A DNA stretch of 64,000 nt from Octopus vulgaris (taxonomy: Eukaryota): positions 2,604,001-2,668,000 of the forward strand of contig OX597831.1 of NCBI GenBank assembly GCA_951406725.2, read 5' to 3'. Under the pieces are notes generated by a model. It was not told the origin of the DNA and did no database searches. It saw only the letters and a program-made list of their open reading frames with translations. The stretch's first letter is position 1. Every line of letters begins with the position of its first letter. Positions 28,948-62,835 of the stretch are shown here, piece after piece. The position numbers and the translations under genes are program-made.

Positions 28948-29336
28948 ATTTCTTTATTACCCACAAGGGGCTAAACACAGAGGGGACAAACAAGGACAGA
29001 CATAGGTATTAAGTCGATTACATCGACCCCAGTGCGTTACTGGTACTTAATTTATCGACCCCGAAAGGATGAAAGGCAAAGTCGACCTCGGGAATTTGAA
29101 CTCACAACGTAACGCAGAATTTGAACACAAGGGCTAAACACAGAGGGACAAACAAGGACAGACATAGGTATTAAGTCGATTACATCGACCCCAGTGCGTA
29201 ACTGGTACTTAATTTATCGACCCCCGAAAGGATGAAAGGCAAAGTCGACCTCGGCAGAATTTGAACAACATAATGCAGACGAAATACCGATATGCATTTC
29301 GCCCGGCGTGCTAACGATTCTGCCAGCTCGCCGCCT
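28948..29336 (-). mobile_element. Family A SINE with duplicated body and 17-bp TSD
   Basis: TSD TTTCATCGACTAGACCT at 28931-28947 and 29337-29353. Confidence 0.85.
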
Positions 29337-35709: not shown

Positions 35710-36140
35710 TAGGAGGAATTACAACCGTGTTTCGTGGTCTGCTACCACAACAGCTCCTTTATAGGATCCAGTTAGCTCAAGACATCATCAGGAGGAACCA
35801 TGTCCGGTTTCGGCCCCTACTCCTCTACTGTTTTGATGTGGCGGGACCCCCCCTTTCGGAGGTGTCTTCAGCTCTGGTGTTGGGTGCATGTCTTCTTTCT
35901 TCTGTTCCCTGGCCTCTTTGATGTATCGTCAGCGAGTGTCAGCCGGTGACTGACTGTCTTGTCAAATTTTTCCCTTTAAATACCTGCCGCATAGGCTCCA
36001 GCAGGCAGCCCCAGCAAGTTGTCACGTGACACTGTCTCACCTTAACTGACTAGTGAAGGCATGTAGTTTTAGCCCGCTTTTTTTCTAAACGACCGTCACC
36101 TGACAGGCAGTTCCAGCAAGTTGTCACGTGACACTGTCTC

Positions 36141-36146
<6 letters not shown>
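35710..36146 (-). mobile_element. PLE-like terminal repeat with three CUGANGA motifs and a permuted hammerhead
   Basis: On -: TATTTAAA TATA-like box, CTGACGA (35926-32), CTGAAGA (35865-71), CTGATGA (35785-91) and several GAAA. A 43-bp direct repeat lies at about 36002 and 36104. TA-flanked. Confidence 0.6.
35785..35848 (-). ncRNA. Candidate non-circularly permuted hammerhead ribozyme
   Basis: GGTCCC-g-CCACATC-aaaa-CAGT-A-GAGGAG-ta-GGGGCC-GAAA-CCG-GACATGG-TTCCTC-CTGATGA. Confidence 0.55.
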
Positions 36147-61861: not shown

Positions 61862-62208
61862 TAATCCGTCTTTAGTCGAAAGACACCTGTTGTTATGTCC
61901 TGTTATTTATATTTGTGTAACATTTCTGGGGTTTTTTTTCCGTCCTTGTTTCATATACATTCGTTGCTTTCTTCCAAGGAATGTAATGCTCTTAGCTTAT
62001 TTTTCCTTGGGGCTGACCAGATTGGAGCAATCTCGAGTATAACCAGCTGAAATTGCAAAGATAATCTGGAACTCGACTGAGGATAGAAAACTCCGAATGA
62101 TCCGGCCTTGTTTTCCATGTATCATCTGTCTGGATATTTTGTTTTCCTTGTTTTGTTTCACCTAACTGTCTGGATGTTTTGCGTTCTTGTCCCATATTTG
62201 TATTTTTT
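61862..62208 (+). mobile_element. PLE-like repeat in (ATAC)n carrying a permuted hammerhead
   Basis: Homologous to 3852-4056 (-) and 24886-25015; microsatellite on both sides. Confidence 0.7.
62011..62083 (+). ncRNA. Candidate non-circularly permuted hammerhead ribozyme
   Basis: GGCTG-a-CCAGATT-gga-GCAAT-C-TCGAGT-ataac-CAGCT-GAAA-TTGC-aaagat-AATCTGG-a-ACTCGA-CTGAGGA. Predicted cut after C62032. Confidence 0.6.
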
Positions 62209-62835
62209 ATACCTACATACATACATATATACATACATACATTTATATATACATAAATGCATACATACATACATACATACATATATACATAAATACATAC
62301 ATACATGCATGGTAGAAGTCAGCTCGCACCATCTAAATGCAGTGAGTCCAAACAAATATTTTGAGAGTCCAAGAAGTTATTGTACATTAATTTGTTTTGA
62401 GTGGATTAAAGTATTGCACAGCACTGAGCCCATTTTTCAGTGCTATCAGCTATAAAACCAATGGTACCACAAAGGCTGAGACGACCAGAAATCAACTACA
62501 TTTCATGTTGTTTACGGTTTTTTCGTATTTCATGTTTACAGTTTGTGATGTCCTGTACCCATATATGCATATATATATCATTTATAGCTGCATTATATGG
62601 CTAATAGGTTAAATGAAACATACCTATCTTCATGGCCGAAACAGCTGTCAGTTATAATGTAAATGTATTTTTATATCTTGTTATATTTATTTAGTTATAT
62701 CTCACCATATTATTTGTAATTATTGTACTGTATTAATGTCTAATCTCATTGCTATTGTGTAGTGTTTTAATAAAGTATATGATTCGGTATTATCTGATAG
62801 ATGATGATTGATTTAGATATATTTCTCCATTTTCT

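Follow-up and report, generated by a model that had tools for sequence, protein, structure and literature searches.

Analysis of a 64,000-nt window of the Octopus vulgaris genome (contig OX597831.1, positions 2,604,001 to 2,668,000; all coordinates below are those of the window) indicated that a repeat at 35.8 kb derives, by its sequence, from a HERO-type retrotransposon, whose 3' UTR carries a conserved hammerhead fold that is present here in decayed form. The fold resembles type-SGC hammerheads but has a split core; it falls outside every described type and, in intact copies, is predicted to cleave. We consider that the fold is almost certainly under selection and that intact copies very probably self-cleave. 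The features assigned in the window copy, and the corresponding region of a second family at 62 kb, are as follows.

35711-36146, minus strand: 5'-truncated 3' UTR copy of a HERO-type RLE non-LTR retrotransposon (family 1), adjoining a (TA)n run
36104-36146, minus strand: 43-bp duplicate of an internal piece of the tail at the 5' junction, a template-switch-like scar, as at integration
35863-35877, minus strand: 5' strand of helix E, pairing with 35768-35784
35849-35862, minus strand: hairpin F with a GAAA tetraloop and no spacer to E or A
35843-35848, minus strand: A (GGTCCC), 5' strand of stem II; G35848 is the G10.1 equivalent
35835-35841, minus strand: B (CCACATC), a strand of the stem I/II interaction helix; CpG decayed at 35837
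35826-35830, minus strand: C (3' strand of stem III) and the GUA triplet; CpG decayed at 35829
Between 35826 and 35825, minus strand: predicted cut, placed by analogy
35820-35825, minus strand: D (GAGGAG), 3' strand of stem I
35812-35817, minus strand: A' (GGGGCC), 3' strand of stem II
35808-35811, minus strand: GAAA (G12 to A15.1)
35805-35807, minus strand: C', 5' strand of stem III
35798-35804, minus strand: B' (GACATGG); CpG decayed at 35801
35792-35797, minus strand: D' (TTCCTC), 5' strand of stem I
35785-35791, minus strand: CTGATGA core (CUGAUGA, C3 to A9)
35768-35784, minus strand: E', starting immediately past A9 and pairing with the upstream E strand
35711-35769, minus strand: 3'-terminal segment of the element, with a motif common to close relatives
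61958-62099, plus strand: split-core fold of family 2 (E, F, A, B, AUC triplet, predicted cut after 62032, core at 62077-62083)

Inspection of the sequence found the complete hammerhead core letters in the window copy, i.e., C3-U-G-A-N-G-A9, G12-A-A-A15.1 and U16.1-H17. The copy differs from the family majority at 4 of 115 positions (35846, 35837, 35829 and 35801), all of them within helices, and its stem III has just 2 bp beyond A15.1-U16.1; it is probably impaired as a ribozyme and would represent a 5'-truncated by-product of the element. The element ends ~113 nt past the predicted cut site. Its terminal part, 3' of helix E (35739-35769, minus strand), carries a motif (TCC-loop-GGAGCT, then AGCA) that is common to the closest relatives (L194-L197, L205, L226 and L237). 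We also considered a second canonical hammerhead at 35720-35765 (minus strand) and rejected it, the family-majority core at this place reading CTGTTGT. Elsewhere in the window, other repeat families form short tandem arrays, with a unit of 62-63 bp or units of 162-179 bp (10904-11023, 11570-11784 and 22952-23117; 49-410; 28962-29266), and yet another repeat reads GGCC-GAAAC-AGCTGTC at 62634-62649 (plus strand), which resembles half of a Penelope-type hammerhead.

A preliminary description of this DNA had placed segments A, B, C, the GUA triplet, D, GAAA and the core on the minus strand, and each of them was found at its position; helices E and F, the host element and the likeness to type SGC had been overlooked. 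It had further proposed that the permuted order is shared with an unrelated family at 62 kb. The 62 kb copy (plus strand, core at 62077-62083) does have the identical order, and the two families differ in origin, since the 35.8 kb repeat is the tail of a HERO LINE and the other is a non-coding unit of ~780 nt arranged in head-to-tail partial tandems, with no ORF found in 30 loci.

The same description had attributed the CA mismatches in helices B and C to methyl-CpG decay. This was examined in genomic copies chosen by their upstream flank or by their ORF, to avoid bias; 27 of 29 flank-picked and 25 of 29 ORF-picked copies were aligned, and the remaining 2 and 4, respectively, were dropped for poor alignment. 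G was the majority letter at 35837, 35829 and 35801 both in the flank-picked copies (23/26, 24/27 and 24/27, respectively) and in the ORF-picked copies (21/25, 24/25 and 22/23), and divergence was higher at CpG sites than elsewhere in both sets (0.111 vs 0.032 flank-picked, 0.089 vs 0.038 ORF-picked). Thus, the mismatches in B and C are CpG-derived; the third CpG lies at 35801-35802 rather than 35800-35801. The T at 35846 in helix A is private to the window copy as well; C is found at this position in 15 of 24 flank-picked copies, and the length of the G run varies.

The strands of the motif follow the order E-F-II5'-B, cleavage block, GAAA block, B' and I5'-CUGANGA-E', and with D/D' taken as stem I, A/A' as stem II and C/C' as stem III, the block order is S-G-C. 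A9 continues into helix E, and hairpin F brings in G10.1, such that E and F form a spacer-free four-way junction (core, E, F and II) between A9 and G10.1. Because E and F are interposed at this point, stem II is completed by a strand from upstream. We also tried the strand 3' of CTGATGA as stem II, which would make the motif an SGC hammerhead proper, and rejected it: the first pair forms in only 2 of 34 cores, and in all 34 the pairing partner is located upstream. A type I, II or III assignment was rejected too, the motif having the order S-G-C with crossing helices rather than a circularly permuted C-G-S nested three-way junction, and an Rfam search gave no match for the motif. As for type SGC itself, the block order S, G, C, the short linker between stems I and II and the interaction helix are all present, but block C, which that type has unbroken, is split.

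Results from several searches supported the earlier claim that the fold is real and selected. A structure descriptor matched 34 of 80 metagenome loci (the best 80 of 512 relatives), all on the sense strand and mostly 100-850 nt past the ORF match, compared with 0-2 matches per replicate in shuffled controls (5 replicates, one strand), and the fold was seen by eye in 5 further loci. Downstream sequence of 450 nt or more was available for 45 loci, of which 23 gave descriptor matches and 5 were recognized by eye; the 17 in which no fold was seen even by eye belong mostly to distant branches of a quick tree. From these and the octopus genome we assembled 34 distinct cores (31 metagenome and 3 own-genome), which are related, so that counts among them are not counts of independent events. 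Stems I, II, III and B had been selected by the main descriptor. The 10.1:11.1 pair is G-C with the upstream strand in 33 of 34 cores. Helices E and F, which the search did not demand, are there without any gap in 26 of 33, compared with a mean of 1.2 and a maximum of 5 over 200 shuffles.

In a 10-row MAFFT alignment of close rows, 94% of cells pair, vs 74% when shuffled and 38-50% when slid, and both sides change in 16 of 20 pairs; this test omits E and F, which MAFFT shifted. A helix-only descriptor with free core slots was also run on 64 regions and gave 26 matches, 15 of which contain GAAA, RUH and CUGANGA together, including 13 of the 13 that score 34 or more; none of the 6 shuffled matches contains them. 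Thus, the core was recovered without prompting. In L209 and L235, related cores have U in place of C3 (UUGAAGA), with helices that are otherwise intact.

In 100 dinucleotide shuffles of the window, the descriptor gave 2 strict and 7 relaxed matches, and it gave 1 match in the real window, namely the 62 kb copy; the 35.8 kb copy fails the requirement for a 3-bp stem III and was found once 2 bp were permitted. CTGANGA is not enriched in the window (28 vs 25.5 expected). Nested MFE folding of the window copy gave nothing unusual (z -0.10), as is understandable for a fold that is multiply pseudoknotted and decayed.

To identify the host element, the repeat was followed through the 2.8-Gb genome, where 1362 first-look candidates for the repeat region were found, and a 28-nt stretch had 541 exact matches, vs none for the reversed control. 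In four long copies, which are collinear over 1.3-1.6 kb, an ORF ending in zinc knuckle and RLE motifs is followed by a ~450-nt 3' UTR containing the motif, and a longer copy includes the RT domain (RVT_1, E 8.4e-22). The motif lies downstream in 28 of 30 loci selected by ORF. The single ORF encodes RT, a CCHC-type knuckle and a C-terminal RLE, the knuckle and the PD..E..K..Y motifs having been read in the translations against PMC5678591; Pfam recognized no family in the RLE part. By eye, the RT agrees with the HERO-1_BF and HERO-2_DR rows of the alignment published in the supplement of PMC5678591, and HERO LINEs are described as carrying an RLE (PMC9004415). Named homologues come from fish, lancelet, mussel and an argonaut, and a metagenome scan with a single protein and a viral scan returned no relatives. 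A Naiad origin of family 1 was considered and rejected, the ORF being RT then RLE without an N-terminal GIY-YIG before RT. The octopus genome also holds a second, younger HERO-like family (family 3), which has the same fold with different helices.

Next, we examined how copies of these two families begin. The element's start and its own tail meet at a single, fixed base, and the copies displayed have no extra letters there. When copies were picked by the 5' leader, the tail preceded the start in 19 of 19 family 3 copies; 16 extend beyond the cut site, and none stops within 5 nt of it. Of the 19 family 1 copies, 4 break off within the leader, and the 15 that reach the junction all have tail (13 by BLAST and 2 short ones by eye), with 11 extending beyond the cut site and none stopping there. 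Altogether, 27 of 34 tails pass the predicted cut and 0 of 34 end within 5 nt, with tail lengths ranging from ~15 to >1470 nt. Among short copies, 5' ends are not enriched at the cut: 2 of the 18 family 1 copies with a non-A at position 17 (among the 541 exact 28-nt matches) start there, as does 1 of 6 in family 3. Since full-length copies have no free 5' end and their tails continue through both the junction and the cut, the template should be either circular or an uncut concatemer. The metagenome contigs L203, L216 and L271 have terminal overlaps of 111, 55 and 127 nt, respectively, as of elements assembling as circles or collapsed tandems, and the contig with the 111-nt overlap bears the fold.

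The predicted cleavage products have helices II, B, III and E in common (median of 26 inter-product bp), and because the products share these four helices, the ends of a monomer would hold each other. We propose that the transcript of a partial tandem carries two ribozymes one unit apart, that intact copies would cleave after the RUH triplet and that cuts at both would free a monomer. Its ends, clamped by helices II, B, III and E, would favor ligation by RtcB or by the ribozyme itself to give a circle, and this unit-length RNA circle would serve as the template for insertion. Target-primed reverse transcription may then start internally, ~113-119 nt past the ligation point, and continue for more than one round of the circle, which would yield tail-before-head copies. 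This whole chain, i.e., cutting, clamping, ligation, internal priming and rolling reverse transcription, is in our analysis a reasonably probable account. It is favored by the shared-helix clamp together with the circularization by RtcB of animal retrozyme monomers (Cervera 2020, PMC7229834). In the 5' leader of both HERO families (L125, reverse strand 2770-2860; L324, just past the tail-head junction) there are short hairpins in series with GAAAGA-like loops, and in 3 of 22 metagenome loci the core is followed by RGAAAGAC at least twice in exact form. On a circle, these elements would be located just 3' of the priming point, where they might position RT.

Run-through tails are, however, equally expected from a slow or inactive ribozyme and an uncut concatemer template. 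An active ribozyme may operate without a circle, either trimming linear RNA, as the HDV-like ribozyme does at the 5' end of R2, or cutting some of the transcripts, while tail-before-head copies come from an uncut concatemer or from very precise template jumping. R2 excises its own RNA from a co-transcript by self-cleavage (PMC7650587), ribozymes of the SGC type are slow (0.007-0.19 per min, PMC10085705), such that uncut RNA may persist, and partial tandems could be re-transcribed into concatemers. On the other hand, linear RNA generated by the cut predicts tails of 113-119 nt, which is at odds with the absence of ends within 5 nt of the cut and with the 27 tails that go beyond it. A one-base junction without added letters, as in the copies shown, is also not the usual outcome of template jumping. 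We regard a circle-free ribozyme as rather unlikely.

We consider it unlikelier still that the element is non-catalytic or nearly silent, e.g., a hammerhead-shaped structure at the 3' end that binds protein, stabilizes the RNA or positions RT. The broken link between A9 and G10.1, the span of each inserted copy across the predicted cut, the absence of a 5'-end spike there and the U at C3 in L209 and L235 would all suit such a role. Nevertheless, all catalytic letters, the RUH triplet and the G10.1-C11.1 pair persist among elements whose RT-RLE proteins share just ~30-60% identity with the query, the SGC strand order is a proven cleaving form (PMC10085705), and an upstream loop supplying helix II works in the PK hammerhead (PMC11300833). 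Finally, a chance arrangement in GC-rich repeats, caught by a flexible pattern, would fit the unremarkable nested folding and CTGANGA count and the failure of the window copy under the strict descriptor, but the shuffle controls, the restriction to the sense strand, the covariation and the recovery of the core without prompting speak against it. The comparison of the 34 cores and the helix-only search have already largely refuted this reading, which is hardly credible.

We then compared the split-core fold and its host with known systems. Type-SGC ribozymes (HRIMA-1 and variants, PMC10085705) are alike in their S-G-C order, short linker between stems I and II, extra helix joining the sides of stems I and II (B here) and full core. 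However, the available text of Eckert 2023 (PMC10085705) assumes that CUGANGA leads directly into stem II and that block C is uninterruptible, whereas in the split-core fold the S block is preceded by both the 5' strand of stem II and B, and A9 runs into E, with F. The split-core fold would thus break the stated rule that CUGANGA must run directly into stem II. As described in the same text, SGC ribozymes come from metatranscriptomes, with none in the genomes of known organisms, while animal retroelements carry the split-core fold, with copy numbers from the hundreds to the thousands; this would place non-circularly permuted ribozymes in animal genomes at high copy number. The available part of Perreault 2011 (PMC3088659) describes short core insertions only. 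A partial precedent for the wiring is the PK hammerhead (Zhan 2024, PMC11300833), which likewise forms the equivalent of helix II with a strand from another part of the RNA and retains cleavage; it differs in that one pseudoknot with the helix IV loop replaces helix II, in contrast to the two helices (II and E) and the non-circular block order here. The literature searched contained no tested natural ribozyme of split-core form. We also found no description of the wiring, or of a hammerhead in HERO, in this mainly open-access literature; subscription papers, the paper on Zebulon and the Eckert and bioRxiv supplements may bear on novelty. Zebulon, a pufferfish element, reportedly has a tandem structure. 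A term search of the available text of a 2026 retrozyme preprint (10.64898/2026.07.22.740005) gave no occurrence of "Hero".

Among related retroelements, Naiads were reported in the available text of Craig 2021 (PMC8557442) to have no canonical hammerhead and 8 "half core" cases, including Naiad_Ovul. The tails of Naiad_Obim and Naiad_Ovul given in the supplement of PMC8557442 have the split-core order by eye, with a weak E, which makes the fold a candidate for the missing ribozyme of Naiads. Animal retrozymes (PMC7229834) and the pseudo-LTR hammerheads of PLEs (PMC8557442) resemble the HERO families in having one ribozyme per unit and head-to-tail or partial tandem copies. They carry type I hammerheads, and retrozymes are non-coding, whereas the split-core host is an autonomous RLE LINE; RNA circles made by RtcB were shown for retrozymes (PMC7229834), while for HERO the circle is proposed from genomic junction patterns. 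We judge the chances evenly balanced that this is a seventh natural hammerhead architecture, with the catalytic strand opened into a four-way junction such that the cut ends clamp each other, common to two unrelated retroelement classes (HERO LINEs and Naiad PLEs) and their non-coding parasites, and that HERO is an autonomous LINE retrotransposing from circular RNA, with internal priming followed by rolling reverse transcription. RLE LINEs are generally believed to prime at the 3' end of a linear RNA, and a circular RNA template would offer a mechanism by which such a LINE inserts as pseudo-LTRs and partial tandems; a self-clamping, cut-and-rejoin ribozyme would serve RNA circularization and RLE-based gene insertion. 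The host element has the single ORF with RT, zinc knuckle and RLE of the HERO clade, and R2 offers a parallel for a ribozyme that processes element RNA; that of R2 is HDV-like and located at the 5' end, whereas the split-core fold of HERO lies in the 3' UTR.
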